Assembly (NCBI GenBank): GCA_964016885.1
Contig: CAXHJY010000967.1
Span: 135,354-199,353 of the forward strand
DNA: 64,000 nucleotides
From: Eledone cirrhosa
Lineage: Eukaryota
Direction of reading: 5' to 3'
Shown here: positions 712 through 36,955 of the stretch, one piece after another
How the letters are laid out: the number at the start of each line of letters is the position of its first letter
Position numbering within the stretch: the stretch's first letter is position 1
The notes under the pieces: model-generated
The model's input: the letters and a program-made list of their open reading frames with translations, nothing else
What the model was told of the DNA's origin: nothing
Database searches by the model: none
Program-made: the position numbers and the translations under genes

Positions 712-826
712 ATTATATATATATATATATATTATATATATATATATATTATATATATATATTATATATATATATATATATTATATATATATATATATAT
801 TATATATATATATTATATATTATATA

Positions 827-909
<83 letters not shown>
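663..909. repeat. Interrupted (TA)n microsatellite
   Basis: Direct inspection. Further (TA)n, (GA)n and (CA)n tracts at about 30014-30078, 31239-31287, 31405-31453 and 53966-54066. Confidence 0.95.
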
Positions 910-911
<2 letters not shown>

Positions 912-2223: not shown

Positions 2224-2343
2224 CACATGGACCAACCTAGTGCAAACTAGACTTAATGTAACTTAATTTCAGTAAAATTTCATATTAAGCACATAGACCA
2301 TCTAAGTGCAAACTAGATTTAATGTAGTTTAATTTCAGTAAAT
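2224..2343. repeat. Diverged ~66-bp-period tandem duplication
   Basis: cacat(g/a)gacca..agtgcaaactaga..taatgta..ttaatttcagtaaa occurs twice. Confidence 0.8.
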
Positions 2344-4013: not shown

Positions 4014-4131
4014 TGAAAAATTCGGGACCCCCAACGGCTGAGCTCCTGCCGTTTCAACAGCTAGATCTGAACATTCAGATCTAGCTGTTGAAATAGCAGA
4101 AGCTCAGCCGTTGGGGGTCCCGAATTTTTCA
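4014..4131. repeat. Fold-back palindrome, 58-bp arms with a 2-nt spacer
   Basis: tgaaaaattcgggacccccaacggctgagct...ctagatctgaa-ca-ttcagatctag...gggggtcccgaatttttca, with 3 mismatches. Confidence 0.95.
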
Positions 4132-5063: not shown

Positions 5064-5255
5064 GGACGGTGGAGTGGCAGTATCGGTAGAGGGTCGGACG
5101 CCATGCTTTGCAGCAAAGAGTTAAGGTCCTTTATGGTCCGAGTTCAAATCCCGCCGAGGTTAACTTTGCCTTTCATCCTTACGGGGTCGATAAAATAAAG
5201 TACCAGTAATATACTGGGATAATTGCTGGCCTTGTGCCAGAAGTAGAAACAATTA
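5064..5255 (+). mobile_element. tRNA-derived SINE family 1 with a Meta/Sauria-like core, full length with TSD
   Basis: A-box tggcagtatcgg, B-box gttcaaatc and core gcctttcatccttacggggtcgataaaataaagtaccag; flanked by attatattactta. Other copies at about 23774-23964(+), 24245-24418(+), 30574-30761(-), 30860-30975(-), 60254-60404(-) and 60872-61045(+), plus fragments. Confidence 0.9.
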
Positions 5256-6831: not shown

Positions 6832-7039
6832 CCCTTTAGCATTTACATTACACTATATCTACTATTGTATTTTCATGGTAAAGGCTTTACCTCACATAAT
6901 ATCGCTTCTATGATATTTTGATGTTATTTATTTTGAGAACAATACCTTAACATCAGTATGAGTGGCTGGTTACAGCCGGTTTGAACAGAAAGAAGTGAGA
7001 TAATTCTGGCCGGAAATGGCCAGTTTAAATGCTAAAGGG
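6832..7039. mobile_element. piggyBac-like MITE, family A, opposite orientation
   Basis: ATAA-ccctttagcattta ... taaatgctaaaggg-ATAA. The interior is the reverse complement of the 49607 copy. Confidence 0.8.
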
Positions 7040-10000: not shown

Positions 10001-11345
10001 AAAGTATAGAAATATAGAATAGTAAAAGAATGATAATGCTTCAATATATTCGTCTAACAAGCAACATTTAAAAAAAAAAACTTTTATGAAATATTTTCGA
10101 ATTTTAAAGGGAGCATGTACATTTGTGTACAGAAATTTGATATAAATTGAAATAGCTCTAAACAGTCATGATTTACATAATGAATCATATACAAATGCAA
10201 TAACTGACACATGAAGATTAACAAAACATAAAGAGATCAATTGAGGACAAGGACTAAACAATGCCATGCTAGAGAAAATAAATACTCTAAGTAGGAAATA
10301 ATATACAAGCAAAGCATATTCTAGACACAAGGACATCTGGAATTAAGGCAGCAAAATAAAAATAAGTTCAAAGAAAATATATCAAAGGAGATTGATATCA
10401 TGGACATTGTATGTATGTGCAGCCTAATGGTTGGAGAAAAATGTTTCCAATAACAAACGAAGCAATCCGATCTTAATTAACAACTGAACATTCTAGTAAG
10501 TTGTTAAGTAATAAACCACCTATCAACAGGTGAAACACGAAAAAACTATATATACATCAAAACTGAAGAAGATATGAACACCAGATAGTCATCATTTTTA
10601 CCTAACAATAACTGAAAAATTTTCAGCAGAAATAAAACTGTCATACAAGGCATTATAACAAATAGCTTTTCAATTTATTGAAATTTCATTTGAAGTATTT
10701 TTTAAAGAGCTAATTTTCTTTTTCTCCCTCCACTCTCTCATGCACACATTCACACTCCCTTAATAATAATAATAGCAATATTCTATTCTATTCAACTACG
10801 TATTTTTTGTGGGTTTAAAAAAATGCTTATTCCAATGAACTGCATCTCCTACAATTAAAAACTTACTAACTAAATCTGAACAGACTAGCAAATGCAATGA
10901 TCTGAATACAAGTTCAATTTCCTATTAAACATATATGAAAATAGTAAATTCTGACATACAACATATATATCATCTACCAACAAAATTTACTAATGAAAAT
11001 TTCATATAACTAAATCTATAAGTAAATAATCAGCATTTAACATTATTCTCTAGTTAATTTATTCTTTTAATGAGAAGCCATGATGTAAAGTAATTACCCT
11101 AACCACTTCTATAATATTTGATATAACTACTTCAAAAGTACTTACTATTTTCTGTAAAAGTTTTATAAGGACAGTGTGATATATAAGATATTTAGTAGTT
11201 GATTTTAAATCAAAAAACTAATTGTTTCAATTCTGCTTTCATTTGAATTTTAGACCCAATTAAATAAAATAATATTTTATTTGGTATTTTTGTAAATGTT
11301 AATAATACAACTAATTTGACATGGTAAAGTATATTTGGAATGAAG

Positions 11346-13608
11346 TCATCATCATCATCAACGTTTAACGTCCGTGTTCCACGCTTGCATGGGTTTGGAC
11401 GGGGGTAGTCCACTTGAGGCAAGAGTGATTGTCTTGCTCGCATAGGACTGTCTGGCAGGTTTTCTACAGTTGGATGCCCTTCCTAACACCAACCACATTT
11501 ACAGTGTGGGTCTGGGAGGTTTTTACCGTGTTGCCTACACGGCCACATTACAGCGTGGACTGTGTGTTTTTTTGTCGTGGCACCTACACGACCTCATTTG
11601 TTTTGGCCTGGATGGTGTGGCACCAACATAACTTTACATAGAACGGGGTGGTGTGGATGGGGTGGTGGTGGTGGTGGGACGGGGGGGGGGTATTTTGTTA
11701 GAGATGCCTACTGGCTGTAGTAGGTTTTACTATGTATTTAGGTAAGGCGGGTCTTCTCTGTTACTGAGTACCGCCAAAGGTCTCGGTCCAGTGACATTGT
11801 CTTGGAGAGGTGTAAGTGTGTGAGGTCGGAGTTTATCAGCTCGTCCCAGGTTTTTCTAGGTCTGCCTATTCCGTGGCTACCGTCTATCTTTATTGCCCTG
11901 CACTTTGTTATACAGCTATCGACTTTCATGCGCATCACGTGTCCATACCAACGTAGCCTTCTCTCGAGTAAACAACATCTGATCCCTCTTATTTCTAATT
12001 TTTTCCTTAGTTCGTTTATGCTTTGCCGTTCACGTATATTACTGTTACACATCCAGCGGAGCATGCAAGCTTCGTTCCTCTCTAGTCTGCGTATATCTTC
12101 TGCACACAATGCCCAGGTCTCACTGCCATGCAACATTGCTGTTCGTATGCAGGCATCGTACAACCTGCCTTTCATTTTTAGGGAGAACCCTTTAGCAGCT
12201 AATAGTGGTATAAGCTCTCTGAACTTTTTCCAACCAGTTCTGACTCTAGCTACTGTACTTTCAGAGCACCCTCCCCCACTGCTGATTTTATCACCCAGGT
12301 AACGGAAGCTGTCCACTATTTCTATAGAACCCTCTGCGCAATTGAAAGAGCTAGTATTTTGTGGGCACTTGCTGCTACTTACTGCACCAGAGCACCGGCC
12401 ACATGTAAAATCTATGTTCTTAGTTAGCTTACCTGTGATCCCACTACATCTTTTATGCACCCATACTTTGCATTTAGGACATAAAATGGAGTTTCTACCT
12501 ACGCCTTTCCTACACACCGAGCACGACCATTTCCCAGAAGGGACCGCTGCCTTATTTTCTTTCCTACAAACTAGAACTTTAGTCTTAGCCAGGTTAATTT
12601 TAAGTCCTTTTGATTCTAGGCCGTGCTTCCATGTTTGGAATTTCTTCTTTAGCTCGGCCATTGATTCCGCTATGAGTGTCAGGTCGTCTGCGTATAGGAG
12701 TTCCCATGGGCAGCCGGTCTTGAACTCCTCTGTTATAGCCTGAAGGGCAATAATAAATAGTAGGGGGCTGAGAACAGAGCCCTGATGGACGCCAACTTTT
12801 ACGCTAAACTCTTCACTATATTCGTTGTTAATTCTAACCTTGCTGACTGTTTCTTTATACATGGCTTGTATAGCTCTCACAAGCCATTCGTCAACGCCTA
12901 GTTTTCTAAGAGCCCACCAGATAATGGAGCGGGGGACTCTGTCGAAGGCTTTCTCCAAGTCGACAAAAGCTAAGTAGAGGGGTTTACCTTTAGCTAGGTA
13001 CTTCTCCTGTAGTTGTCGTACAATGAAAAGAGCGTCTGTGGTACTTTTGCCTGACACAAACCCGAACTGCATTTCATCTAGGTGAATTCTCTCTCTGATT
13101 AGTTGTGCTATTACTTTTTCCGTGACCTTCATGACCTGGTCGGTTAAATTAATGCCTCTATAGTTACTCCTATCTAGGGTGTCTCCTTTACCCTTATAAC
13201 AGTTAACGATGATGCTGCTATGCCAGTCCTTCGGAACAACCCCATTCTGTACGACTTGGTTAACTATGCGGGTGACCATGGTGTGTCCCACCGTGCCAGA
13301 TGCCTTCAGCATCTCAGCAACTATTTCCGAAGGCCCAGCCGCCTTACCCGTCTTCATATCCTTGATTGCCTTACTTATTATACTCCCCTCGACTAACACT
13401 GCTGGTCCCTCTATTGGGTCGATATGGGGGAGACTGTCTTTCTCCCATTTATTCTCCTCATTTAGTAGCCTTTCATAGAGACACTTCCAAGCTACCTTCT
13501 TATCAGCGTCGGTGATGGCAAGTATGCCGTCATCGTTAAGTACACACTTCTCCCCGACAATATCACGGTTTTCCTTGACGCATTGCCTAGCAATCCTGAA
13601 ACACCAAT
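11346..13608 (-). mobile_element. RTE-clade non-LTR retrotransposon, 5'-truncated (endonuclease missing), with 3'UTR and (GAT)n tail
   Basis: Contains an uninterrupted RT ORF. The 3'UTR ends in ...GGACGTTAAACGTT-(GAT)n, a terminus shared with many shorter copies in the window. Confidence 0.92.
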
Positions 13609-13615
13609 GAGACAA
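11738..13615 (-). CDS. RTE-type reverse transcriptase (625 aa, N-terminally truncated) with an internal PHD finger
   Basis: Motifs KAAGP, NYRGI, QFGF, FVDLEKAFD, GVHQGSVLSP, LYADD, FRYLG and RRLRWYGHV. A C4HC3 finger sits between KTKVL and FRYLG. Confidence 0.9.
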   Translation of the reverse strand: MSHWCFRIARQCVKENRDIVGEKCVLNDDGILAITDADKKVAWKCLYERLLNEENKWEKDSLPHIDPIEGPAVLVEGSIISKAIKDMKTGKAAGPSEIVAEMLKASGTVGHTMVTRIVNQVVQNGVVPKDWHSSIIVNCYKGKGDTLDRSNYRGINLTDQVMKVTEKVIAQLIRERIHLDEMQFGFVSGKSTTDALFIVRQLQEKYLAKGKPLYLAFVDLEKAFDRVPRSIIWWALRKLGVDEWLVRAIQAMYKETVSKVRINNEYSEEFSVKVGVHQGSVLSPLLFIIALQAITEEFKTGCPWELLYADDLTLIAESMAELKKKFQTWKHGLESKGLKINLAKTKVLVCRKENKAAVPSGKWSCSVCRKGVGRNSILCPKCKVWVHKRCSGITGKLTKNIDFTCGRCSGAVSSSKCPQNTSSFNCAEGSIEIVDSFRYLGDKISSGGGCSESTVARVRTGWKKFRELIPLLAAKGFSLKMKGRLYDACIRTAMLHGSETWALCAEDIRRLERNEACMLRWMCNSNIRERQSINELRKKLEIRGIRCCLLERRLRWYGHVMRMKVDSCITKCRAIKIDGSHGIGRPRKTWDELINSDLTHLHLSKTMSLDRDLWRYSVTEKTRLT

Positions 13616-13845
13616 ATGTGATAGGAGAAATTCAAATAAATGATAATGCTATCAATGATCACAATGTAGAAAAAGAAAATGCGTCACCAGCGTGATCAAG
13701 GATAAAATTTAGTGAACAATTTATAGACAGAACACTTTTCATGAAGAGTTGAGGGGAGGATAAATTAATTAATCAGATTCTTAAAACTTTGTTGCAGCTG
13801 GCAATAAACTTAACCTACTTATACCTGGTCCTCACCATATAAATA

Positions 13846-14004
13846 CAGTGAAGTTCCGTCATAACGAAATTCATGGAGTATAAAGTGAAATTTGTTGTAA
13901 CGAGATCGGCCTAACACATTGAGCGTGTGGCCGAAGATTAAAAAAAATTTTGTTATACTAAAAAATTCATCATAATGGTATTTGTTATAACGGAATTTTA
14001 TCTG
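13846..14004. mobile_element. Pogo/Tigger-like MITE
   Basis: TA-cagtgaagttccgtcataacgaa ... tttgttataacggaattttatctg-TA, imperfect TIRs of about 24 bp. Confidence 0.7.
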
Positions 14005-14525
14005 TATATAAAAAATAGGTAACCCAAGTAATTTTCATGGTTTCACCTGTCTGTACCTAACAATTGATTACACCTATCAGAACCTACATTAAATTAACCT
14101 ACACATGTCATTACTATAATTACAGACTATAACATTCAGTATTTAGGACATTAAGTGTCATATTGTGTATATTTTTAATAACTAAAAAAAAATATCTTAC
14201 TTTACAGTAAAGAAGAAAAGGTATTTTGGGTCTTTTCATTTACATTCAAGCAATTAAAATTAGTGTCTACAGAAATAAAACCACAAACTTAAAATCCTTA
14301 GTAATTTATGAAAAATATATGTAAAAAATACTTGATAAGTACCAGACAAATTAAAATTCCTATATACTGTATATACTCATATTCAAGTCACATTGCTTTG
14401 CATTTATAATATTGTGACTTTAGGCTTTAACCCATACATAGTTACAATTAGCTTTTCATAAATACTATCAGCAACTTCGCATGCAGGTGCATTTAAAAAA
14501 ATGCTGAGATAATCCAAATCATTAG

Positions 14526-14642
14526 AAATACAGTCAACAAAGTCCTGGAACCATAGATATCATTAAATACAGTCAACAAAGTCCTGGAACCATAGATATC
14601 ATTAAATACAGTCAACAAAGTCCTGGAACCATAGATATCATT
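14526..14642. repeat. Perfect 39-bp x3 minisatellite
   Basis: aaatacagtcaacaaagtcctggaaccatagatatcatt repeated three times. Confidence 0.95.
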
Positions 14643-16491
14643 GCCATGTGTTTCTATGATCTATACCTGTAATGAACACATTAACCAATGCTTTTAAATT
14701 ACAACTCCTGATTCACTCACAATAGATGTAACATTGACAGTGTTGGATTTAGGACAAATGAGGCCCTATGCTAGTTAAGTTGAGGTCCCTTACTTGGGGC
14801 CTGAAGGAGGTAAAAAATATTTTTGGCAAGAAGATGGGTCTCCTGACCAACAAGGCCCTGTGGTTAAGTACACCTAAGCACAATGGTAATTCCAGCACTG
14901 AACATTGGGTAATAGGATTACAGCTGACTGATAGAGATTTGTGCATGTTTCATACACATGGAAAATGTGCATATATAAATTCATGAGACTACATATCATA
15001 GGTGCATTTGTTTTGTAGCAGAATTGAATTCTGCTTGTCATTTCAATAGAAGACGTTATTAACATATATTCGTTTACAACGCTGATATTCATATAGACCG
15101 AGGAGTGATGAGATCAAGCCTGCCCTACATTTCCAATCATTTGTCAGTATATGTATGTTAGCACATGATGCATATTTTGAGCCCAGAGTAAGGTTCAATA
15201 GATAAGTCATATGAGGTTTTTGGTGTTTTATCTTCAAGTATATACAGTAAATAGAACACATACTATAAGATTTATTATCTTAAATAAGTGATATTAGTTA
15301 CTGGATATCTAGACATACTTTTCAGTTTATAAATTTTAGATGAGATACTCTATAGTGCCAATTAAATGTATAACATTAAAAAAAACATAATTATAAAGAT
15401 AATTAACAAATTTGGGTTATGTCACGCATTCATTTTTGGTTTACCTTTAATGATAATATCGATTTATAAAAAACTTTTTGGGGGGGAGGGGGTTCTTTTA
15501 TGATCTTAATGCAGAAATGAGAAGCATTGAGCTAATGACTAAAGTATTTATTACAACTTACTACCATCTAATAATCCCACTGATATTATAATAATTATGA
15601 TATCCTTGCCTAAACATAAAGTGTTTTTTACTTTAGTAATGTTGCTTGAAGTATCCTCAGTGTACTATTTCAATTATTTTAAGTACTGAAAGCAAAGACA
15701 ACCTCTGTGTATTATTTGAACTCTGAACAGCAAAACAGTAGGTTAGATATTGCAAACCAAGTTTAGCTTCCATAGGTTTTGGCTATCTCCAATAATAATT
15801 TATATATTAAGCAAAAGGTAGCACATGAATAGGTGATGTTAAATAACCCGTTGGATAATTGCGGCACCATCAAAAACTGTGTGTGCAGTGTAGCTAAGGC
15901 AAACTGAATGTAAATAATAATAACAATAACAACATCAACATTGTTCTAATGTGCATAAAATATAACAAATCAGCTTTAATTTTTCATTTGCTTACATCAA
16001 GTGCTTTAGCAATTTAAAAAGGAAAATTAGAAACAAGTCACAAAATTAATTAAACCCTTCCTAAATGAAGTTAATATTTGAGAATTTGAAGAAAAGAAAT
16101 GAAAACACCAAAAATGCCAATACCAAATCACCACTTGACATACACTGAATGCTTAATAAATGCTTAATCAACAATATTTTTAGCGAAATAATAAGAACTA
16201 CAAAAATAGAATTGTTCAACAGCCGCTGAAAAAAGCTATATGATCTAGAACTTTCTAAGAAATAATCACAGAAAGATGAAGACAAGAAAGAAAAATGATG
16301 AAAATCAGAAATTTCCAATAGAAATAAATACACCCTGGCTTGTGCTCATGCTGGAATAAATATAATGAAGCCTGTGTATTTGTGTGTTTGCTAAGGCATA
16401 TTGAACATGGGACATTTGGCTGGTTACTGGACTTGCAACATTGAGAGCTAAGTTCAAGCCAATCTATTGCTGCTATGTGAGTGGTACAGAC

Positions 16492-16560
16492 CTTGGGCAA
16501 GACTATCACAGCTCCCTCGCCGATGGAAGTTAGTAAGACTGCAGTCATAATCCCATTTCA
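16492..16560 (-). CDS. Candidate 69-nt phase-1/phase-1 cassette exon in the MKK7-like intron (L)KWDYDCSLTNFHRRGSCDSLAQ
   Basis: Acceptor ctctattttttctttaccag and donor CAAG|GTCTGT. The exon is open in the exon-1 phase, its length is divisible by 3, and it is unique non-repeat sequence. Confidence 0.35.
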
Positions 16561-16839
16561 CTGGTAAAGAAAAAATAGAGACAGCATCTTTCCATCATTC
16601 TAAACATACTCAGCACTTTAATGTAACCTCAGAAATTGCATTACATGAAGCTGTGCAGTATTTCAGCCAATCAGAAAAAAAGAAAATTTCATCTGATAGG
16701 CATCATGTGATGTAGTGAAAACAGGGACAAAGCTGTGTTTACATTTATAATTATATAGTGAGAAACAATTGCAATACTGAATTCTCAAATGAAGTCGGAT
16801 TATATATGCACGTATATATACATATGTATATTTTTATAT

Positions 16840-21132
<4,293 letters not shown>

Positions 21133-21627
21133 AAATTTTAAAATGGATTGAGATTACTTTTTCAATACTTTCTGAGGCTAATGAAATGTACCAAAAACCA
21201 TACATTAATATACTGAGTCAACTTTTCACTTAATACTTAATATTCTGATGCAAGTTAATAAATAGAGGGAACATTAATTATTCCGCCAAATTTTGATCTG
21301 CCAACAAAAAGGTAGAATGGCAATATTGGTATGATTAATTGAGATTAATTTGAAAAGTATGTTGTTGTTTTTCTTTCCTATAATGGAAACATTCTACATT
21401 TCAAGTTATTTTACACTTGGTTATAAATATGAGATTGGTAAAACATTAAATCTTTTTCACAATTAATATATAATTAATTTATTAAAGTATAATGATCTTA
21501 AACAAACTCGGAAACACAAAACTTGCCCTGCAATTGGGTGGAATTTAACTGGAAGGCAGAAACTGGAAACACCTTGAAATAAATATGAACAAGAGAAAAG
21601 GTAAGAAAAAGGGAAGGTGGCACTTAC

Positions 21628-21654
21628 TTGTTAGAATTCAATGATGTGAAGTGT
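21628..21654 (-). other. Candidate 27-nt microexon
   Basis: A ~140-nt pyrimidine-rich tract ends ...tttcacctctccag|, followed by ACACTTCACATCATTGAATTCTAACAA and a perfect donor |GTAAGT. The exon is open only in phase 2. Confidence 0.4.
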
Positions 21655-22532
21655 CTGGAGAGGTGAAATTGATGCCAGTAAGGGGCAGTAGGTGGCAAAA
21701 GGTGAGAGAAACAAGACAAAAAGGAAAGAGAAATGAAGGGAGAGAGAGAGAGAAAGAGTGAGAAAGGTGGGGTGGAGAGAGAGAAAAGTATAAAAAACCC
21801 AGCAAGATGCAGCAATTGACAAACCTAGTATACAGTTGACAGCATTTTACCGAAAACTATTAGTAAGTAACCTCAAAGTTTAAAAACCATGGCTACTTAA
21901 TTCTAAAAACTAAATATTAATCACAATGCACCTATATATGTGTGTGTATATATATATACAGGATGCTATTTTTCCATATTTAATGAATTTAATATATAAA
22001 GATACAACAGTGACCACATACAAGCTCTCCAATATTTCAATTCTATTAATGAAATAAGGAAATACAAAGGAATATCAGCATATCTACTACTAAAGTAATA
22101 GCAAGAAATTATTTTTATAAATTTATGAAGTCAACACCAAGTTGCAGATAAATAGTTTATAAAACAATATTATGAAATTATATTCAAAAACAAACTGACT
22201 CCACAAACCCAAACATAATCTTGTTTTAAGAAAACATTTCATGAAATGAAATTCCTAGAGTTCCTTTAGATAAGTTGAAGATGATATAAAATATTTTCTT
22301 AATGCTTACAAAATATACTAGAAAATTTGCTAAGATATTTTTTATTAATATGTCTATTAAATTGAAAACAGCATATTTATTGATACAAATTTGTGGAATA
22401 TTATTGTTTGTTTTTTGATGAATTTTATAACAAATTTTCATTAAATCTGTTTCAAAGTTGAATTTTTTTTGTGAAGGCTTTATGTTGGTTGACTATTTCG
22501 ATGACAAGAGCTTTGTAATGACAGCTACACCA

Positions 22533-22602
22533 CACTAATGAAGAACTGCACTACACTGTACTAGTTACACTAATGAAGAACTGCACTACACTGTACTAGT
22601 TA
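22533..22602. repeat. 35-bp x2 tandem duplication
   Basis: cactaatgaagaactgcactacactgtactagtta occurs twice. Confidence 0.9.
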
Positions 22603-24513
22603 AACTTGCTTTTGTTTTAAAAGTTTACAGATTAAATTATTTGTTTTAATAATATGGAGAACAGCCTAAGCAAGAATAGTGATAATTATAGAAGGTAATT
22701 TTTTACATATCTTTAAAAATGAATATGAACTTTTCAAAACATCCTTTTTCTTAAATTAAAAAAACGACCAAAGGACTAAACCAATTTATTTCTTTGTTAG
22801 ACTTTTCAATATAACTTCAAGATACAGGGTCTGACTAGTGAGGATTCTTCAAAGAAAAGAATAGATTTGGTTCTAAATGTAAAGTATATTAAATAATTAA
22901 ATACAGAGAGAATACCTTACATTAAAATTGACACAATATCCAATACATATAACTGAGATGCGATAAGCAGCAATATTTTCTCTAGTGGCAACCTGGTGCA
23001 TTTGGTAAAGACCCAGGTTTCATTGCCCGACAAGTTGAAGATAGCAGGCTGTTGTTGTACCAGCCACTTTTTCATAGATTTGTTGTTGAAACCTATATGG
23101 GTGTAGACTTCTGGTGCTTTTGGTCCCCTAACTACCTCTCTACACACTGTTATTGGGGGAAGTAGAAGGGGGAGATTTGGCAATCAACAGGAGTAAGCCC
23201 CAAGAGTTGGAACATTGCCCTCGCTATCCTCTGGGGTAACACTATTCTGTTCGCTGAAACCATGAAGCAGCATGCACCTCAGGTTCTGGGTGTTGGAGAA
23301 GGTTTTCCCACATTGTCCAGAGGAAAATAATGGAAATATATTGCACTGAAGTGTAAATCTTCATACATAAATTCTGTTCCCTTATATAAAAAAATAAATC
23401 AAAATTATGAGCTTTTGATGTTAAAGTATATAAAAAAAAACAACTGTGATAATGATAACAAGGGTTTAATCTTAATGACATCATTAACAACCTTTATTAT
23501 CATTATTATTATTATTAAATGTGCTCTCTTATATACACTTTTAATCATAGTTATTATCCAATCTAATTGGCTAAAAGAATTATGTAAAATAATTAAGTTA
23601 TTAGCCATGAAAGGAATGAACTGGAAGAATTTTGAAGAATTGCAATTAATAGTTTTATTATATTCTGAGAACATAATTTTTAATATATTGGATAACAAAA
23701 GATTAAATGTTGAAAATTGATTTTATAATCTACACAGGATAATTTTATGTATTTCAGGTTAGCAATTATTATTGGTGGATTGGCAGTATTGGTAGAGAGT
23801 CGGACACCATGCTTTGACGCATAGAGTTACGGCTCTTGCCATTCTGAGTTCAAACCCCGCCGAGGTCAACTTTGCCTTTCATCCTTACGGGGTCGATAAA
23901 ATAAAGTACCAGTAATGTACTGGGTAATTGCTGGCTTTGTGCCAAAAGTAGAAACAATTATTATTTTTGTTGTCCTACTTTAATAAATAATCAGGTTTAT
24001 AAAAGGCAATGAACTTTAGAGTTTTCTCGAAAGAAACAAAAACCAGAATAACTCATTAAACTTAGCCTACTATCAACTATTACTAAAATTATTTAAAAAT
24101 AAACAATGAACCTCATATATCTTTCATTTTAATTCTAATTTAAAACACTGTTGATGTCATACCTTCATCATCATTTCTATCTTCCCTAGTATGAAAATAT
24201 CTGTTCATAACTCAACTTTTGTCAAATATGTCAATATTGTTATTCAGTATTGTTAGAGTCGGACGCCATGCTCTGCAGCATGGAGTTACGGGCCTTTATG
24301 ATCTGAGTTCAAATCATGCGGAGCTTAACTTTGCCTTTCATCCTTACAGGGTCGATAAAATAAAGTACCAGTAATACACTGGGATAATTGCTGGCCTTGT
24401 GCCAAAAGTAGAAAGAATAGTTATTCAGTAGCCTCAGTAATAGTTGTGTGAGATGTAGTATGACTGCCTATATTGCATCTGTTTTGCTGTCAAGTCAATT
24501 CATATATCATTAA

Positions 24514-24731
24514 CCTTTTTGATACCAAACCACCTGAAACCAAGTCATGTGATACAAACAAGTTATCTTCAAGTGTTTACATTTATCTAAAAAAACAAAC
24601 TTTGTAGGAACCTTTGTTAAGTTATGCTTCAAACACTAGCTAAATAATTAGAGCATTATATTGCTAAATCCCTCCATATTCTTAATTATTTGAAAATCAT
24701 AGAGTGTCTTACAAATATGGTAACAAAAAGG
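24514..24731. mobile_element. TTAA-flanked MITE, family B (other copies at about 26600-26830 and 56701-56957)
   Basis: TTAA-cctttttgatacc ... ggtaacaaaaagg-TTAA, with three homologous copies in the window. Confidence 0.7.
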
Positions 24732-25169
24732 TTAAAGATTCTAGTAGAGGTTTTCACAAAGACAAGTGAAGTAAATTGAATTCAGAACAGCCTTACTGGG
24801 CAGCTCAGGATAGAATTAAGACTCAGTGTAGCAAATATTACAATGTAAGCATCATCCTAATTTTTACATCTGCATTTCCATACTGGCTTGTGGAAAAGAT
24901 GTTTAGATACATTGTTTTACAGCTGGATGTCTTATCTGCCATCAAACCTTTTAGTTTGCCTCCTGCAGTCATTTTATTAAATATGGTTATTTTATATTCA
25001 TGGTTAATAAAAGATAGTATTAGTAGTAGTCTTCTGAAGTATCACTGATACATTTAGAAGTGTGTAGTTGGTGGCACATGTAGTTGTAGGAATTATATAA
25101 GTTGGAACTGACTCTACCATGAACTATGACCTCTGAATTTGTAAATGGTTGTTATTATGTATGTTGTAT

Positions 25170-26330
25170 ATAGGTAGAATGAGTAGTATGGGCTTACATC
25201 AGAGATGGTCACTGAGATGCTAAAAATATCTAGCAAAAAAAGAGTGAAGTTAATTACTCACGCCATCAACCAGGTAATACATGATGGTATCATACCCAAT
25301 GACTAGATTAGCAGTATCATAATAAACTGCTACAAAATAAAGGAGGTACTCTGGAAAGAAACAACTATAAAGGCATCAAACCATATTTTTAGTGAGACAA
25401 CTAGAAAAGAAGTTCCTAGCTAAGAGTAAACCACTAAATTTAGCTTCCATTGATCTGAACACCATGAACTGTAGTTTGAAAACTAGATGTAGATTAATGG
25501 CTTGCGAGAGCCAAGCCATGTACAGAGATGTCAGTAAAATGAGAAGTAGTATTCAGTGTCCATCAAGACTCAGTTCTCAACTTGCCCCTGTTCGTTATAA
25601 TTTAGCAGGCTATCTGTGGATACTATGGAGAAGAAATTCTAAACATGGAACCAAAAGGCCTGATTAAAATTAGCAAACATCAAAATGTTGTGAAGTAGGA
25701 AAGATAACAGGACCCTACTGTTATCAAAGAAATGGCCTTGCTCAATGTGCAGAAAAGAAATAAGGAGAAATTCCATAAGCTATAGTTGTACAAGAGGTGT
25801 AATTATATCACAAGCTGACTAATAGAAAAAAAAAGAAAGTGTGTGGTGGTAGATGCATGAAGGTAATTGATTAGTATTTCCCAATCCAAGGAAGGGTCCA
25901 TAGAGGTAGCTGATAGCTTCTGTGGCGTAGGTGACCAAATTAACAGTAGAAGGTCCTCTGAAAGCATAGTTGGCAGGCAAAGAACAAGGTTTAAAAAGTT
26001 CAAGGATCTATTACTTCTGTTGGCAATGGAGGGATTCTCTCTTCATGAGTAGGGTAGATTGTATGATGTCTGTGTGCATAGAGCAAAGTTGCATTGTTGT
26101 GAAATGTATGAAACGAATGCAGAGATAATGCAAAGGCTTGAAAGAAATGAATGAAGCATGCTCCATTCAATGTGCAATACTAAATATGCATGAATGATAA
26201 AGCACAGATGAGTTAAGAGAAAAACTTGGATTGAGAGAAATCAGATACAGTGTGCAAGAGAAAGAATTGCACTGGTACGGGCATGTAATGTGCATGGATG
26301 AAGATCAGTGGGTGAAGAAATACCAAGAAA
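25170..26330 (+). mobile_element. Heavily decayed RTE LINE
   Basis: Remnants VRQLEKKFLAKSKPL, EGSIEVADSF and LHWYGHVM. Confidence 0.8.
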
Positions 26331-28318
26331 ATCAACATAGTGTATACATTAAAAAAAGAAGATCTGGTGATAGCTAAGAAGATTAGGTCAAAAATATAAA
26401 GTACTGCAATATATGCAACATTTTTTAAAAATTTTCAGTAGATATTTGACTTTGGAAAAAGATTGTACAACAATATCCTATAGATGTTTGAAGTCGAGCT
26501 AAATGTTACTAATGTGTATAAAAGATGAAAATTATATGAAATATAATAGACTCTCAGATTGACACGACTAACAATAAATGGACACTTTAAGTACATTAAC
26601 TCTTTTGATACCAAACCACCTCTCTTTCAATGATACAAAACTGTTTGTTTTAAAGTATTTATATTTATCTCAAAACCTCCAATCATGATTTTATGCAAGA
26701 ACCTTTAAGTTATATTCCAAACAACAGAAAGTTAATTGTATTACTAAATTCCTCAAAATTGTAGATTATTTTCAAAGGGACTTGAAAATCATAGGCAGTG
26801 TCTTTCATTAGAAATATGATGAGATAAGAGTTCAATTGTAGCTGAAAGTTTGATTTTATGGTTTGTTTGATGAGGTAGATAATCTTGTCTCTTGCAAGAT
26901 TAAATCAACAATGTGGTGAACCAACAATATTTCTCTCAGAGAAAATGTTTGTAGTGACTAAAAGAACTTTAGGGACTTTTTGAGTAATAGTAACAGATTC
27001 TTTCTGATCATAAAACAATGTTTATAGTATCAGAAGTGTGATGTCAAATGGCAGTAAGATATGACTACAAAAGATAGATTATTAATTGCTGTTGAGGAAT
27101 CGGTTGAATATAATTTTCTGAGTGTAGGAAGAGAAGCTGCATGGTTTAGTGGTTAGGGTGTTCAGCTTATGGTCATAAGGTCATGAGTTTGAGTCCTTGA
27201 GCAAAACACTATCCACATTACTCTAGTTAACTCAGGTGATTGAAAGGGCCAACCTTCACAGACTGCAGCATGCTGAATGTCAGTCACGTGTACATTAATC
27301 TGATGAGCAGGTTGTTCTGTTGATCAACCAGTGGAAGACTCATTGTAAGAGAGGTCCAACAACACAGAAAGACAGACTGAGTAATAGATAAGTTAGGAAA
27401 AAATATATGAGAGTGAAGCAAATTTGATGTTTTGGAACAGTGATACGTATGGATTAATATGGATTAATACATGCTAAAAAATGGAGGATGAACTAGTCCT
27501 ACTTTTTTCTGTCTCTAGGGGCTTATATGCCCAACTTATTAAACTGATTTTCATAGTTGAAAAACGTGTTGAAGTCATTAACTCTAAGTTGACCTAATAT
27601 TCAAAAATTTGTAACTCACTCATTGGTTCTAAAAATAGATGGTTTATTTACATTTGTGGCTGATTGAAAAGCTTAAAAAAGAGAAAGGTGTGGCCACCTC
27701 ACTTTGGTGTAATGGAAGCACAGCTACATGGCATACAGCAGGTATGAGTTTGAGTCATACAGGTGACACTGTTCATTTTTTTCATCTCCCAGGGCTTACA
27801 CGCCCAATTTATTAGACTGTTTTCCATAGTCTAAAAGTGTGTGTTGAAGCTGTTAACTCTGAGTTAACTTAATATTCAAATATCTGATTTTCTCCCTAAG
27901 GATCAACCCATCCTACCCATGCTAGTATGGAAGATGGATGTTAAATGACAATGATGATGATATATATATGTATATATATATATATATGATGTGTGTGTGT
28001 ATATATATATGTATATATATATTATGTTGGTACCATAAAACATCCAGCCCACACTGTAAAGTGGTTGTGTAGGTGTCACGTAAAAGCACCCAGCCCACAC
28101 TGTCAATGTGGTGCGCGTTAGGAAGGGCATCCAGCTGTAGAAAACCAGCCAGAAAAGTCCTATATGAGCGAGAGATGGTCACCCAACCCAACTTGCCTCT
28201 AAATGGGACAAACCTGTCTAACCCATGCTAACGTGGAAGACAGATGTTAAATGATGATATATATATATATATATATTAATTCAAAATATTAATAAATATA
28301 GACATTCACGTAATCAAA

Positions 28319-28389
28319 ATATATTTTATTATATATATTTCGGAGGTACTGTGCTTTTTTTCAGTACGTCCTCATCAGATAAAATATAT
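28319..28389 (-). ncRNA. Minimal type-I hammerhead ribozyme, complete core (Penelope/retrozyme type)
   Basis: Minus strand reads atatattttat-CTGATGA-ggacgtactg(aaaaaaagca)cagtacctcc-GAAA-tatata-TA-ataaaatatat. This gives an 11-bp stem I, a stem II with 9 of 10 pairs, and a 2-bp stem III with a palindromic AUAU loop; the cleavage triplet is AUA. Confidence 0.8.
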
Positions 28390-29141
28390 AAATTGATGTA
28401 CTGAAAAAACAGGACAGTACCTCCGACATATATCATCATCATCATCATTTCATTTTACGTCCGCTTTTTCCCTGCTTGCAAGGGTGGGGCGGGAACTGAT
28501 TGTGGCTTGATTTCTACAGCTTGATGCCCTTCCTAACACCAACCTCATTTACAGTGAGTGCTGGGTGTTTTTTGCCATGGCACCTGCACGATCACTTTGC
28601 AGTAGAATGATATGGACCCCAGTCCCTATCATCTCATTTCTACAGCTGAGTAAACTGGAGCAATGTGAAATAAAGTGTCTTGCTCAAGGAAACAACACAT
28701 CACCCGGTCTGAGAATTAAACTCACAACCTTTCGATTGCAAGGCCAATGCTCTAACCACTAAGCCATGTGCCTCCATTGTCTATATTTATTAATATTTTG
28801 AATTAATATTAATAACTCAAGAAAACTTTTTTGTTGAGTGCTTCTAATCTATTGTAAAACTATATTCATTGATTAATCAATGAACCTTGTTTAACTTTTG
28901 GTTATATATATATAATGAGAGGTACACACATATGTGCATACATACATACACATGTATATATACACATATACTTTTTCACAAGTATGTGAGATTGTGTGTT
29001 GTCGACCTTAACCAGTGTTGCTCTATGATTATGAGAGACAAGATAATCGAAGTAATTAAATTGAATCGATATCAGAGCTATGTAACAATTATAAAGTAAG
29101 AAGAAATAGTAGACACAGATATATACCTATTCTTTCTTCAG

Positions 29142-29382
29142 AAATCCTAGTCATTTAGAACATTTAGGGTACATAATTCTTGTTAGTGTCATAGGTAACA
29201 TGTGGAGAGTCAGGAGTTAAAAAGATGTTCTGCTTAAAAGAACACAATTACAGGCAGCACTGGTTGAAAGTGTGTGCTGCCTGTAATTGTGTTCTTTTAA
29301 GCAGAACATCTTTTTAACTCCTGACTCTCCACATGTTACCTATGACACTAACAACAATTATGTACCCTAATGACTAGGATTT
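29142..29382. repeat. Fold-back palindrome, arms 119 and 109 nt with a 13-nt spacer
   Basis: Arms 29142-29260 and 29274-29382 are reverse complements apart from about 1 substitution and a 10-nt indel. Confidence 0.95.
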
Positions 29383-29407
29383 TAGTAACATGTTTCGACA
29401 TTCCCTA

Positions 29408-29454
29408 TGCTCCGATGATTCCAAACTTCCCTCTGGAAGAAACAATTGTCAGCA
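29408..29454 (+). ncRNA. Minimal type-I hammerhead ribozyme motif with a U4C core change
   Basis: Reads tgct-CCGATGA-ttcca(aacttccctc)tggaa-GAAA-caattg-TC-agca. Stems I, II and III all pair, loop III is palindromic AAUU and the cleavage triplet is GUC. One core substitution. Confidence 0.6.
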
Positions 29455-29494
29455 AATAAATGTTCTAAACTAAAATTTGATCGTTTTAACACTT

Positions 29495-29533
<39 letters not shown>

Positions 29534-30037
29534 AAATGAGGAGAAGAATACTGCATGGTTGCACATGGATAACATGTTATAAAATGAGTCCCTGATCAGT
29601 GATTTACCAACGGTCATAGGTATTTCATTGCATTAAAAATCATATACCTCACGTTGGCGCAATAATAACTAAAATAAGTTATTAGGACAATTAAAACGCG
29701 TAAAGCGAGTGAGACAAGTAAACAACAAAGAGGAAAGCTAACCGAAGATAGGAAAAGACACAAACTACATAGTTATTCTATCAGTATAAGCTGGGTGAAT
29801 ATATGAGCGAGTAGAAAATAGACCTTTCGAGATGAATCCGATGTAAGAAAGAAGGAATCGTTAACGTCGCGAAAGGGGGGAAGTGAGAAGGGGAGAAACA
29901 GTGAGTGAGTGAGTGGAAGTGTGAGGAAGAGGTCAGTAGAGAGAAAGTGTTAACTGACATGACAGAGGGGACGAAAGAAAGTAAGTGAAACAGAGAGAAC
30001 GAGGGAGCAGTAAGAGAGAGAGAGAGAGAGAGAGAAA

Positions 30038-30081
<44 letters not shown>

Positions 30082-30090
30082 CTTTCAATC

Positions 30091-30330
30091 CATTGAGTGT
30101 TCTGTGATTGCCTCAAAACAAATCAAATTGTACATGCTATATATATATATAGATAGATATCTTTCTTTATTTGCCACAGGGGCGTACAAAAATGGGACAT
30201 TACAAGACGTGATGGCGTCTTGTAATGTCACATTTTTGTATACCCCTGTGGCAAATAAAGAAAGATATCTATCTATATATATAGCAAGTACAATTTGATT
30301 TGTTTTGAAGCAATCACAGAACACTCAATG
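30091..30330. repeat. Fold-back palindrome, ~115-119-nt arms with a 6-nt spacer
   Basis: cattgagtgttctgtg...tacaagacg-tgatgg-cgtcttgta...cacagaacactcaatg, with about 5 mismatches plus a TA-tract length difference. Confidence 0.95.
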
Positions 30331-30332
30331 TT

Positions 30333-30363
<31 letters not shown>

Positions 30364-31234
30364 GAAACCAGTAAAAGAATAATCTTAATATGTAGAAACA
30401 AAATAGTGTGTTGAGAGAAATGTATATATAAGTGAGATGCAGGCCAACAGCCCATTGACACACCCAATAGAAGCGAGATGCAGGCCCCTTGCCCATTTGA
30501 GAAGCCAGTAGCTTTACATGAATACTGACCGAGTCTGTGACTTTACTACCAAGGAAAACAGATGTTAAATGATAATTGTTTCTTTTTTGGCATAAGGCCA
30601 GCAAGTATCCCAGTTCATTACTGGTACTTTATTTTATCAACCCCGTAAGGATGAAAAGCAAAGTTAACCTCGGCAGGATTTGAACTCAGACTGTAAAGGG
30701 CCGTAACTCTATGCCGAAAGCATGGTGTCCGACCCTCTATTGATACTGCCAATCCACCGCCAGTTAAATGATAATGTTGATGATCATCATATGCTGGCTT
30801 TGCCATCAGAAGCAATCAGTTCTCAAGTTCTGTTGCATGTCTATCATTTAATATAATAATAATTGTTTCTACGTTAGGCACAAGGCCAGCAATTACCCAG
30901 TGCATTACTGGTACTTTATTTTATCGACCCCATAAGGATGAAAGGCAAAGTTAACCTTGGCGGGATTTGAACTCAATATAATAATAATGATCTTGTAACT
31001 TTTTATAAAATCTAAGTTGGCTATCTCTTATTTGCTCTCTTTCTCCCACTCTCACTATTTATTTATTTCTAACTCTTACATCTTTACTAATAAATCCTCG
31101 CTTCCTGTTCCTCATAAATGTTCTGCTGAGAGAGAAAGGGAGAGATGATGCATAACAGAATACAATTTTTATGACCAGCAAGATAGAGACTGAGAGAAGA
31201 AAAGCAGAGAGTTTGATATATCAAGTACTAGAAA

Positions 31235-31293
<59 letters not shown>

Positions 31294-31398
31294 CGGGAGA
31301 TGCATGGAAAGAGAGATTGAAAAGATGTAGAAAGTGGTTTATTTAACATTTGAACCAGCATTAAATTAACTTTGTTGTTCAGACAACAGTCATATTTC

Positions 31399-31455
<57 letters not shown>

Positions 31456-31459
31456 CAGC

Positions 31460-32140
31460 ATCATCATCATTTTTATGCCTGCTTTTCCATGCTTGCATGT
31501 GTTGGATAAGTTCTTCTCAGCATAGCATCTTTCAACTTGTCGCGTTCCTTCGTCATCTCCGCTACCAGTGTTAGTGATTTGAGGCCCACTCTCACAACCT
31601 CTTCCCAGGTCTTTCTTGGTCGTCCTCTACTGCGGCGTCCTTCCACTGGGATTTCCTGACATTTCTTCACCTATCGGTCATTGTCCATACCAACAGTCTT
31701 CTCTCCTGCACACCATATCGGATTCCCCTTAAGCCCAGCTTCTCTCTCAGTCTAAGCTCTGCCTTTCTCTCACATTTACATTGCACATATGACTATACAA
31801 GGTTGCGTCATTTTTCTCCAGACTACACATATCCTCTGCAGTCACAGCCCATGTTTCACTACCATGCAGCATTGTGCACCTCACACAGGTGTCATACAGC
31901 CTTCTCGTTGTACGTAGGGAATAACCTTATATTGTCAGCAATGGGAGTAGTTCTCTAAACCTCTTCTATTCTGTTCTAAATCTAGCTATTATACTCTCAG
32001 TGCATCCTCCTCTGCTGTTAATTAGGTCACCTAGATAACAGAAGCTGTCGACCACTTCTATGGATCCTCCGTGACTGGAAAAGGTTTATATCATTAGACG
32101 TCTTCCTCTCGATTTCCCCTGTGCAAAGTTGATGGAAGCT
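31460..32140 (-). mobile_element. Decayed RTE LINE 3' fragment
   Basis: GRRSRGRPRKTWEEVV, a GSIEVVDSFCYLGD-like segment and a (GAT)n tail. Confidence 0.85.
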
Positions 32141-32419
32141 ATGGAGTAGGAAGATCCATAAGACTTGGGATAAGGTAATAAAAGCTGACCTTGCACAATT
32201 GTACCTCTCAAAGGCAATGGCACAGGACCAGGATCTCTGAGTACAGGCTGAAGCATACATATAATATTCACCTCCAGCCTCCCTTCCAGAACAGTCTGAA
32301 ACATACATCTGGTATGTACCTCCATCACCTTCATCCCCACTTCCACACACTTTCCATGTCCTAACACTCCGGCCCTCACACACACCCATACACCCACCTC
32401 CCTAATCCCCATTAAAACC

Positions 32420-33430
32420 GCCAGCCCACACTGTAAAATGATCGTGATGGAGACACAACAAAAAGTGCACAGCTCACACTGTTAGGTGGTTGTGTAGCAC
32501 AACAAAAAGCACCCAGTACTCACTGTAAATGTGGTTAGTATCAGCCATAGAAAAGAAGCCAAAATCGGTTCTGTATGAGCAAAACATGGTCGTCCGACCC
32601 CAACTTGCCTCATATAGGACAACCCGTCTAACTCATGCTAGCTTGGAAAATGAACGTTAAACGGTGATGATGATATATATGTCATATCATCATCATTATT
32701 TAATACCTGTTTTCCATCTAGCAAGAGTTTTGCTATACATATAGACTGGCAATATGCAATACTGGACTCACCTACCAGCATAAAAACATTACCTTGTCAA
32801 ATTCCACTACATCTATCATAGATATGACATATTTTCTTACCTCTTCTTTCCCTGCCACACCCATCATATGCCCATGGCAATACACTTGTTATCCTCCACA
32901 CATATTGTCCCTTACCAGTGACATACTTCCTTCCTCACACTCCCCATTCAGTAGGGAGGGTTTTTCAGTTGAGTCAATAATCAGCAACCTCCCTAGTACT
33001 GGTGTCACAATAAAATGCATCCATTACACTCTGTAAAGTGGTTGGTGTTAGGGAAGGCTTCCAGCCATAGAATCCATGCCAAAGAGTTGAGAAGATCCTT
33101 CTGTCGTGAGTCATGACATCACTAGAGAGGTTGCCGTGTCATGAATATTGACACAGGAACCTCTCTAGTGCTGGTGACACAAAAATGTACCCAATACACC
33201 CTAGAAGATGATTGGTGATAGGAAAGGCATCCAACTAAAGAAGCCATGCAAAAAATGGGTTGAGAAGTCTTGAGGCACATCAATGACATGACAACCTCCC
33301 TAGTGCTGGTACCAAAATGAAATACAATTGGTGTACTCAGTCCATATGAGAGGTCAATAGCTCTGATGAAGTACTGACATGGTGTGTGACAACCCATCCA
33401 ACCCTTGCTAGAAGGAAAAATGATGAAGAT
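32420..33430. repeat. Cluster of RTE-3'UTR-related short repeats (similar pieces near 7345-7800, 8410-8740, 27905-28258, 28434-28600, 39200-39800 and 46140-46500)
   Basis: The motifs cactgtaaagtggttgg, ggaagggcatccagc and acccatgctagcatggaa recur, with (GAT)n tails shared with the RTE 3'UTR. Confidence 0.65.
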
Positions 33431-33739
33431 TATATATATATTATTACTGAACCTCTATCACTTCCAACAAGTGCTCCAATTGATTCAATCAATGGAACAG
33501 CTTGCTGGTGAAATTAACATGTAAATCGCTTAGCATTCTACAGACACGTGCACTTTTAACAGTTCTCAGGGAGAGTCAATGTAACAAGGATGGTCCATTT
33601 AATTACAGATACAACTAATTTTTGCGAGTAGAGTGGACTGGAGCAAAATGAAATAAAGTGCCTTGTTCAAAGACACAATGCACCTCCCACTCCAGGAATC
33701 AAACTCGTGACTTTACGATTTCTCATATGATTTGTACTT

Positions 33740-34500
33740 CTGCTTTGAAGAAGCTTAGCAACTGATCTAAGCTGAAATTTGTCTGGCTCTAAAGAGAAAG
33801 CCTAACCTTTGAAATTTGAATTTGGCAATGCAGATAAATGTAAGACCACAGTAAGTGAACATCAGAGATTTTGAAGGCCTTTTATCTGTATACTGTCCAT
33901 GGTTATTAAAGTGGGTATAATGCAAGACTGTTTCGTTGATATTTAATGAGATTGTGTTTTGTAAAAACAAGATTATCATGCTCTACTGAAGGTTTTGGAT
34001 ATCTTTATTTACAGAAGTTATGCATCTCTAGATTAAAACATGTAGGTTTCACATGGATGATGCATGTCTACAGAAGTTTGAGGTATGAAGAGTATCATAT
34101 GCAAAGAAGTGTGTATAGTTAGAAGTAACTGCAAGCAAGTCATTATTGTATATAGGAAAGAGTACAGAAGACATAACTGAACCCAGAATACATCAGGTTG
34201 ATAGAGTGTGGTCCAAGAGAGTTTTATTAATACAGGTTGTGATGCAGCAGTCCGACAAGAAGCTTCCAACTGAAGGAAGGTTAAAAACAATCAAACACTT
34301 CACTGATTCCAAGGGCAACAGCATTGCTTTTACCAAAATACTTTAGATCGAGAGACCAGAGGTGAGAAAGTCTGGTTGATCCAGCTCTACAGAAACCATA
34401 CTAGTTATTAATGAGAAGGGAAAAAGACTCCTGGTGATAAATGAGATGATTGATTGCAACAGTTTTCAATACTGCTAAAATCTTATTTCTTATTTTAATA
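33740..34500 (-). mobile_element. Heavily decayed APE-type LINE RT fragment (Jockey/CR1-like)
   Basis: Eroded DISKAFD-like and GSVMSSVLFL-like segments in broken frames. Confidence 0.45.
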
Positions 34501-36955
34501 AATGAAAAGCTACGGCAAATGACCTACTAAGAAAATTATATATGTAGTTCCAAATCCTGATATAATCCCAAACTTAATGTTAACTATTTTGTATTTGCTT
34601 GGCTATAACTCTCCTCTTCCTCCTTTATTGTTTTACATGAGTTACTTATGACAAAATGGAATCCTATATAGGTGAAAATTTGTATAATCATTTATCACCA
34701 CAGAGTTAAAAAGTTAATATCAATCTTATGAACTCATAGTTTATACAAGCAGATATAGCGAATATTCCACTTTTACACTACTAATAGATTATGTTCCTTT
34801 CTTTCAGTTTGTAAAAAACATATTTTTTTAATATAATATATGACAATAACAAGTAGATTCTGTGGGTTTGAATCAAGTTGTTATGAACTGTTTACAGCTG
34901 AAATTAAACTTCTCGTGAAAGCATACCAACGTTCTTTAGTTTACATTATCTAATTTGAAGTGATTAATAGAGCCTCATCCAACAATTAATATTATAACGA
35001 ATGGGATCCAATAAATAACCAGGTAATAACGAGGAGAAAATAGATCAAAATACACCTTAGGAGAGTATATGAAAGCTAAACAACAAGGTAATTATAAACT
35101 AGAACGACAGATCATTTCCTTCGAACTTTCAGACACTATTAGATTCATGAATAAACAAAATGCTCAGTAAACAGCTACTACCGTCCTTAAAACATCACCC
35201 CGAGAAAATAAGTTTATGGGTGGAATATCAACATCATAGTGGTCAGCTTCAGCTAAATGAAAAACACGTTAATGGTCTCTTACTAGATGTTTTACTATTT
35301 GTTACTACGATTAAAGTTGAAATGAGACTTCTCACGGTGGATGAAAAAGACTTATGAGATGTTCAAGTAGCTTCGCATAATTGAAGCTAACGAAAGAAAA
35401 ACACCTAGACTGTTTATTATCATACAAGTATTATTATTGTTTTTTTTTTAATATCAGTTTTTATAGGATAGGCATGGTTTATTTATTGAATAGAAAGTCT
35501 ACAAAATACTAGGGGAGGACATTAAACTAGAGGTGTAGAGTCGCTCCCCTTGATTGGAGCAGTCGCCATTTGTAAATACGCGTTGAGCAAGCTAACTAGA
35601 CTAATCACACACAATGCAAGAGCAACAACAAAACATAATAAAATAAAAAAAGGACAAATTAGGAAAAAAAAAAGAAAAACTCAAAGACAACTAAAAGAGA
35701 GAAGAGAAACAAAAGATAAACATAAAGTTCCCACTGTCCCCTCCCACATCAAAGCCACGGCACTATCACAGCAAATGTCTCCAAGTTGTGTAGCATAAAC
35801 TATAAGGCAAATCATTTATGGTCAGTCACTTACATTCTGGTAAGATCACACATTCAGACACGCAGCCAGACATATGGTTACTATGTGAGGAATCAGATCA
35901 TTCAACTTTAGTTCTCATAAACAATACAAGACATTTCGTTTGAAAACAACTCGAAACCAACAATTAAAAAAAAATTAGGGCAGCTTTTAAAAAGTTATTT
36001 TGTAACAAAGAAAGAATCCTTCGCAAACAATAGGATAAGGTGATTAATTACAACAGGTTAGATTCATTTTAAATTTATTTTTCTTTAATTTTCATTTTTT
36101 TAAAAGCTTTATATTTCGAATATTAGAGCCCATTTTAAAAATATAATTACTAGATGTTTATAAATGGGGGATAATGATATTTTATATCTCAAATATTAAT
36201 TAATGAAGTGGGGAAGTATAATTTTCCACAGTCAATACACCGATTCCTCACTTGGTGACCAGTGTGTTGGTGCATAAATGTATGTCCACACCCACATCAA
36301 TAGGCACGGTAAAACCAAGAGGCCGCTTAAATCGCCGAAGAGTTCTGTAAACGAAAGATTGGGAGCCACTAGGACCACCAACCGTTGTTTGCAGGAATTA
36401 AAAGAGATGATGATGATAGTATTAGTAGAAATAGTAGTAGTGGTGGTGATGGAAATAATAATACAAAAGTAGCATGTTAACAGTTTAAGACATCAATGAA
36501 TGTATTCATTGAATGGTGATGATGATGATGATGTCTGAAGCTAAACAATCATGATGGGCAAAATCTCCAATAAACAAGGATTAGATGAATACAGCAAGTG
36601 GTGGAAGTTCTAACAAGTCTTCTCACATTAAAAGACTTCCAGAAGTTGTGACCAACTTAATACAAAATTTCCCATCGAGTTATGGCTATTATCATTATTA
36701 ATTCATTAATACTATTATGAGAGGTTAGAGGGGGGGATGCTGATGATTGATAGAGAACTAAAGAAATAAACAGCAGGGGAATTAACAGAAAATAATTACT
36801 GCTGCTGCTAATAGAGAATTATAGAGAAGGTGGCGATGGTGGGGATGGATTTTTTTTTTCTCCCCAAAACCTCATTCGTACCGTGCCGTACAGTTTATAC
36901 TCATGAGAATCACATTGGGTTTTTAAATAAACAAAAATCAAACAAAAAAACTTAC

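Follow-up and report, generated by a model that had tools for sequence, protein, structure and literature searches.

A Hydra-clade Penelope-like pseudo-LTR insertion carrying a hammerhead ribozyme, predicted to be folded shut, in intron 1 of Eledone cirrhosa MKK7

The window analysed here is a stretch of 64,000 nucleotides of Eledone cirrhosa DNA (GenBank assembly GCA_964016885.1, contig CAXHJY010000967.1), and positions 469..36955 of it are intron 1 of MKK7 (MAP2K7), on the minus strand. This intron of 36,487 nt, whose GT-AG borders were read, lies between coding exon 1 (minus strand; start codon at 37088), whose peptide at 36957-37088 is 93% identical to cuttlefish MAP2K7 (one match among seven candidates), and exon 2 (468 to about 428, minus strand), which was mapped with the cuttlefish MAP2K7 protein. 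The same mapping placed the kinase exons in nearby parts of the contig, and all of them are minus-strand; the exon 1 peptide found no match in the Atlas. Because the exons are on the minus strand and the borders are GT-AG, the hammerhead ribozyme described below lies in a 36.5-kb intron and on its sense strand, in agreement with the host gene and orientation of the original prediction. From the host gene, we infer that the ribozyme region is transcribed.

In the adjoining 10-kb stretches of the contig (L041-L043), the same sequences recur at a spacing of about 10 kb, i.e., as a tandem array or an assembly artefact. The segments 50979-53807 (minus strand), 54985-55560 and 47536-47799 of the window hold what we take, from their translations, to be a decayed LINE (endonuclease and reverse transcriptase), RTE-like fragments and possibly a helicase fragment. 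There are also near-perfect foldbacks at 29164-29370, 30142-30283 and 3999-4121 (97-nt arms at 99%, 68-nt arms at 96%, and a long hairpin), which are probably MITEs or other inverted insertions; such foldback elements account for spurious Rfam miRNA matches in the window. Rfam miRNA matches at the ribozyme locus were rejected, as they reflect the hairpin alone.

When both strands of the whole window were scanned with a type-I hammerhead descriptor, there was a single match, at 28319-28389 on the minus strand, with the core nucleotides conserved and in register. The complete core originally proposed for this interval was therefore recovered, as the sole match of the scan. Reading along the minus strand, stem I (28379-28389/28319-28329) has 11 bp, the first core box occupies 28372-28378, stem II (28362-28371/28342-28351) has 9 bp plus one C.C mismatch, and the second core box (28339-28341) is followed by a palindromic stem III (28331-28338) of 2 bp, closed by a self-complementary 8-nt AU run. 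The predicted cut is between 28330 and 28329. A 77-nt stretch containing the hammerhead folded better than 200 out of 200 shuffled sequences (z -3.8). Rfam hammerhead models, which had also been suggested as a check, gave no match in the window at E<=1.

With the ribozyme folded alone, the predicted pair probabilities of stems I and II were 0.6-1.0, and that of the complete hammerhead fold was 7e-4. The pair probability of stem III was about 0 in the monomer, i.e., a stable stem III is predicted to be absent, so that the earlier description of three pairing stems holds for stems I and II, and for all three in a dimer only. A duplex of the stem III palindrome was predicted at -3.2 kcal/mol, which would permit a weak dimer, and an 8-nt self-complementary run at stem III is the layout of dimer-dependent motifs (PMC4209133).

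Copies elsewhere in the genome support the fold. The 191 motif copies in the examined loci formed 16 clusters, from which 14 representatives plus the window gave an alignment of 15 sequences, those of L186 (decayed) and L218 (stem deleted) being excluded. In stem II, seven of the nine pairs vary at both of their positions, and 89.6% of the cells are paired. The covariation score for stem II, another of the checks suggested, was 0.317, compared with 0.207 +/- 0.017 after shuffling (0/500 reached the observed score, although relatedness of the sequences may inflate this test) and 0.06-0.13 for slid alignments. Stem I varies among the 15 sequences mainly via G-U pairs, and the invariance of the core is partly circular because the copies were chosen by their core. 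Covariation of stem II across subfamilies argues that the hammerhead fold has been maintained in the lineage of the element; it carries no information on selection acting on the copy in the MKK7 intron. The hammerhead is real. It is not a host element, and belongs to a pseudo-LTR (pLTR) of a Hydra-clade Penelope-like retrotransposon.

The ribozyme is contained in the short arm of a pLTR insertion (28273..28400, minus strand, sense with MKK7). This arm, with 93-99% identity to genomic copies, includes 71 nt upstream and 57 nt downstream of the cut, and stops at the short 3' end of the family. It meets an inverted long arm head to head, with an overlap of 3 nt at the junction. The 5' piece of the long arm (28398..28433, plus strand), recognized from sequence and fold, comprises the stem II region only and, in the host transcript, runs antisense to the ribozyme; the 3' piece (28778..28902, plus strand) carries a tail of about 93 nt corresponding to the 5' UTR of the element, and stops at the long 3' end of the family. 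The (TA)n target is visible in the sequence on the left (28256..28272) and on the right (28903..28914). Separating the two pieces is one SINE (28434..28777, minus strand; 345 nt), whose later insertion struck the inverted arm in its (TA)n-like stem III, about 27 nt being lost. The inverted copy lacks the first core box and has a substitution in the second, and its cut site was within the nucleotides lost at the SINE.

Some details of the original prediction need revision in the light of this layout. An inverted copy does start at 28398 on the plus strand without the first core box, but it extends to about 28902 rather than ending at 28808. The separate "RTE tail" and "SINE" proposed to interrupt it are a single element, since whole copies align to it elsewhere. 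The "broken head-to-head duplication" is indeed head to head and interrupted, but is not a local duplication, this being the usual form in which the family inserts. The SINE has a tRNA-like head near 28709-28766 (a weak Rfam tRNA match, E 0.58, below gathering) and a trinucleotide repeat at its 3' end, and its tail may be of RTE origin; 14 further genomic alignments of at least 310 nt have 90-97% identity, some of them being redundant. At several other loci (L075 857-1196, L094 5766-6080, L006 and L133), the same SINE directly adjoins pLTR ends of the Penelope-like family, probably because the two share a preference for (TA)n.

A 101-nt query yielded 1,115 candidates in the 3-Gb genome, and 40 of these, when scored, gave 53 matches at 88-100% identity. 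There were 169 exact genomic matches to a 19-mer of the subfamily and 8,000 to a degenerate 23-mer of the superfamily over the 3' half of the ribozyme, with none for either reversed control. Upstream of longer copies lies an AT-rich 3' UTR, preceded by an ORF: one locus (L078) has pieces of an ORF for reverse transcriptase (RT) and endonuclease, a 1.2-kb AT-rich 3' UTR and then a pLTR 94% identical to that in the window, and in another (L075) the pLTR plus tail continue into the ORF where it begins. The counts and these linked ORFs answer the suggestion that copies be enumerated genome-wide and examined for ORF linkage. A third locus (L094) has a frame of 750 codons whose Atlas neighbours, scoring 0.96-0.98, carry HTH_animal, GIY-YIG and RVT_1. 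The ORF encodes RT plus GIY-YIG, the latter C-terminal, in a single frame contiguous with the pLTR repeat, and the pLTRs occur both direct and inverted, with a tail on one end, as in Penelope-like elements. The surmise that this is a minimal hammerhead of the Penelope type was correct.

Searches of the ORF in Pfam (nothing above cut-off; RVT_1 E 0.044) and the PDB (no useful match) were uninformative, and assignment to a clade therefore rests on motifs, the Atlas and comparison by eye with Hydra-1_Obim. The ORF has a CxCx5C linker, DKT and no CCHH, with CxxC and CxH around a catalytic E and N near its end, and an N-terminal RxWC/RxWH motif at the place aligned with the RWK of the Hydra clade; a preference for (TA)n is seen in the flanks of family copies. 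The Hydra clade is defined by a CxCx5C linker, DKT, absence of CCHH, CxxC and CxH around the catalytic E and N, and (TA)n targets (PMC8557442), and its families are "generally <3 kb", a size that the present element exceeds. Judged by its linker, DKT, CxxC and CxH, the lack of CCHH and the (TA)n targets, the family matches the Hydra clade; the RxWC/RxWH motif and the size speak against this. The Neptune and Nematis clades were rejected, because the Cx2-5CxxC linker and the CCHH motif are both lacking.

Other hammerhead-like families with unrelated stem II sequences were seen at L118, L180, L139, L019, L095, L082, L083, L146, L152, L167 and L208, in some cases with two copies on opposite strands; Penelope-like families that bear a ribozyme are therefore likely to be numerous in this genome. 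Beside copies of the present family, pieces of further Penelope-like ORFs with different linker motifs are nested (L046, L072/L079 and L077).

The ends of the arms were tabulated at the first 100 of the 169 listed sites of the exact 19-mer, an anchor just 3' of the cut that therefore imposes no selection on the sequence upstream. At the 5' side, 38/100 arms end at -120..-110 relative to the cut (23 of them within four positions), and 13/100 further upstream than -125. This peak falls on an Inr-like site about 30 nt downstream of a TATA-like run, an arrangement reported in rotifer pLTRs (PMC3846280). There was no peak of 5' ends at the cut site among the 100 arms: 88 span the cut and three begin within 2 nt of it, although 13 begin at -13..+4, where (TA)n microhomology could mask a few cleaved templates. 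At the 3' side, 56 arms end at +54..65, 33 at +140 or beyond and 11 elsewhere, so that the family has two 3'-end sites about 93 nt apart.

The two kinds of arm are paired in an almost invariant manner. An inverted partner was absent for 35 of the 100 arms and unclassifiable for three; among the remaining 62, which represent about 48 insertions because 14 insertions have both arms anchored, 61 pair a short arm with a long one. The sole exception (L192) has a long arm broken by a deletion. The insertion in the window conforms, with a short and a long arm, its small junction overlap and a (TA)n flank on either side. That pLTRs can be inverted and truncated, and that the tail is "often at only one end", had been described before (PMC8557442). 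Within the pLTR, about 82 nt before the cut, there is a consensus 5' splice site that the subfamilies have retained, and just past the long end (L075 and L096) lie candidates for a branch point and a 3' splice site; this suggests that the ribozyme may be inside a predicted 5' UTR intron of the element itself.

The near-absolute pairing of short with long favours a model with two primers. In this model, the RNA of the element would start about 118 nt before the cut, at the putative TATA/Inr promoter, and the element's protein, probably as a dimer, would nick both strands of a (TA)n target. Two cDNAs would then be primed on uncut RNA, at +57 and at about +150, presumably by twin priming on the two target strands, and both would extend toward the 5' end of the RNA before joining head to head via microhomology. 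An alternative, which we consider improbable, derives the inverted arm from a local duplication by fold-back or from self-priming of one cDNA. The junctions often show short palindromes or microhomology, and self-priming on an antisense template has been proposed for rotifer elements (PMC3846280); however, fold-back of a short arm could not supply the tail of about 93 nt on its partner, and short is paired with long in all but one case. Fold-back of a long arm that stopped early, at +57, could still give that pairing.

The long tail contains a hypervariable patch, at 28826..28833 (plus strand) in the window. It is 5-11 nt long, and the 69 of 77 long arms in which it could be parsed carry 58 different versions. 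Its mean pairwise distance was 0.43, about 9-fold greater than the 0.046 in the 62-nt flank (68 arms), and only 7/235 pairs of arms with identical flanks have the same patch. Variants concentrate at 28827-28831 in contigs of one public sample, and by eye this position is also variable in other subfamilies. Both tails at L075 have an identical patch, as do both at L163, some unlinked copies share a patch, and patch distance correlates weakly with flank distance (rho 0.13); these observations argue against fresh randomisation at each pass. Our best guess is that the patch comes from an error-prone step active in some replication cycles and is then inherited, rival explanations being relaxed constraint among many source copies or scarring at the DNA level. 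A broader proposal, that all two-armed insertions are twin-primed from two RNA sites 93 nt apart and that the intervening loop is actively mutated by replication, is tentative, and we would sooner doubt it than accept it; if true, the loop would be a natural barcode for each source copy. A literature search with subscription papers and bioRxiv supplements outside its scope found neither this Penelope-like family nor a hypervariable tail patch, and a site-specific mutagenic step was absent from the Penelope-like literature searched.

Returning to the host transcript, the antisense piece (28433 to 28398) precedes the ribozyme on the minus strand, and would therefore be transcribed first and form a hairpin of about 40 bp that covers stem II together with the second core box. 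The original prediction that the inverted copy would pair with the ribozyme is upheld by the predicted energy of this hairpin (-43.7 kcal/mol). In equilibrium predictions, the probability of the hammerhead fold dropped from 7e-4 for the ribozyme alone to between about 1e-16 and 1e-18 in three longer contexts, and the hairpin was the best predicted fold at all four growing transcript lengths (4/4). This imperfect duplex (28334-28433), which would bury the ribozyme in the pre-mRNA, might serve as a substrate for A-to-I editing or small-RNA processing.

The descriptor scan found no second sense copy in the window that might form a tandem dimer. Single minimal motifs did not cleave in vitro (PMC4209133), and related hammerheads required a dimer or, like the ribozyme of the anole element, the element's own protein (PMC4209133, PMC11167929). 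Given the antisense arm made first, the missing second copy and these needs of related motifs, cleavage of the MKK7 pre-mRNA appears unlikely, contrary to the earlier suggestion that the nascent intron could be cut. A version in which low-rate cutting of nascent intron 1 by the ribozyme affects splicing or termination, and the inverted arm acts as a tunable brake, seems to us very improbable. It has in its favour the complete core, the sense orientation and the stems I and II predicted for the ribozyme alone, and the hairpin could in principle be opened by proteins or by A-to-I editing, which occurs in cephalopods. Set against these are the predicted lack of a stem III in the monomer, the order of transcription, the absent tandem partner, the behaviour of the related motifs, and the fact that this is one young copy among thousands.

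We thus have high confidence that the locus holds a 5'-truncated, head-to-head pLTR insertion of a Hydra-clade Penelope-like element in a (TA)n run of MKK7 intron 1, interrupted by a SINE, with a ribozyme that is predicted to be folded shut by its mirror copy and is likely inert, doing nothing for the host gene. That it is instead a non-LTR retrozyme or satellite unit spreading through circular RNA from hammerhead cleavage, as the type-I motif with a palindromic stem III and a proposed derivation of animal retrozymes from pLTRs (bioRxiv 10.64898/2026.07.22.740005) might suggest, has been largely refuted and is scarcely credible, since within the first 100 listed sites every close pair (14/14) has a head-to-head rather than a tandem arrangement (a few direct neighbours, e.g., L228, occur in the wider superfamily), the ends lie away from the cut site and the sequence is contiguous with an autonomous ORF.

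For MKK7, the insertion is probably of no consequence, since the genome is rich in repeats and has thousands of such transposon ends, and the ribozyme is a real minimal hammerhead in an ordinary setting. The end statistics of the family and the patch are more interesting than the ribozyme in the intron. The family offers Penelope biology a large and young dataset that backs uncut RNA as the template, indicates a start site from DNA alone and makes the qualitative rule of a "tail at one end" near-absolute (61/62 arms). If it is the element that makes the hypervariable patch, the mutagenic step involved would be new, and the patch would tag the lineages of source copies.

Among known systems, the closest include Hydra-clade elements such as Hydra-1_Obim from Octopus bimaculoides (Craig et al., 2021; PMC8557442), which likewise has a C-terminal GIY-YIG without CCHH, CxCx5C, DKT, (TA)n targets and a hammerhead near its 3' end; the RT motifs align by eye. 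However, Hydra-1_Obim is described there as 2,507 bp long with no pLTR, whereas the present family has a 3' UTR of 1.2-2 kb, clear pLTRs, a different hammerhead sequence in which stems I and II are longer, head-to-head insertions and thousands of copies. Like minimal hammerheads described earlier, which were known both as solo copies and as pairs on opposite strands at distances of 100-700 bp, ours has a long stem II, a tiny palindromic stem III and a predicted dependence on dimers. It differs in having a stem I of 8-11 bp rather than 4-5, no bulge between positions 9 and 10.1, a first stem II pair that is G-C, G-U or A-U according to subfamily, and a retained mismatch at the fourth position of stem II. 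Non-LTR retrozymes also carry a type-I hammerhead in a short mobile unit, but here no tandem arrays were seen, the ends are off the cut site and an autonomous ORF is attached. As to mechanism, the green anole's Poseidon element (Frangieh et al., 2024; PMC11167929) similarly has two internal RT starts that define an optional tail, an uncut RNA template and a predicted protein dimer that cuts both strands. In contrast to the anole tail of 30-40 nt, the tail here is about 93 nt and contains the hypervariable patch, and whereas the anole ribozyme overlaps the start codon, that of the present family precedes the ORF, within a predicted 5' UTR intron.
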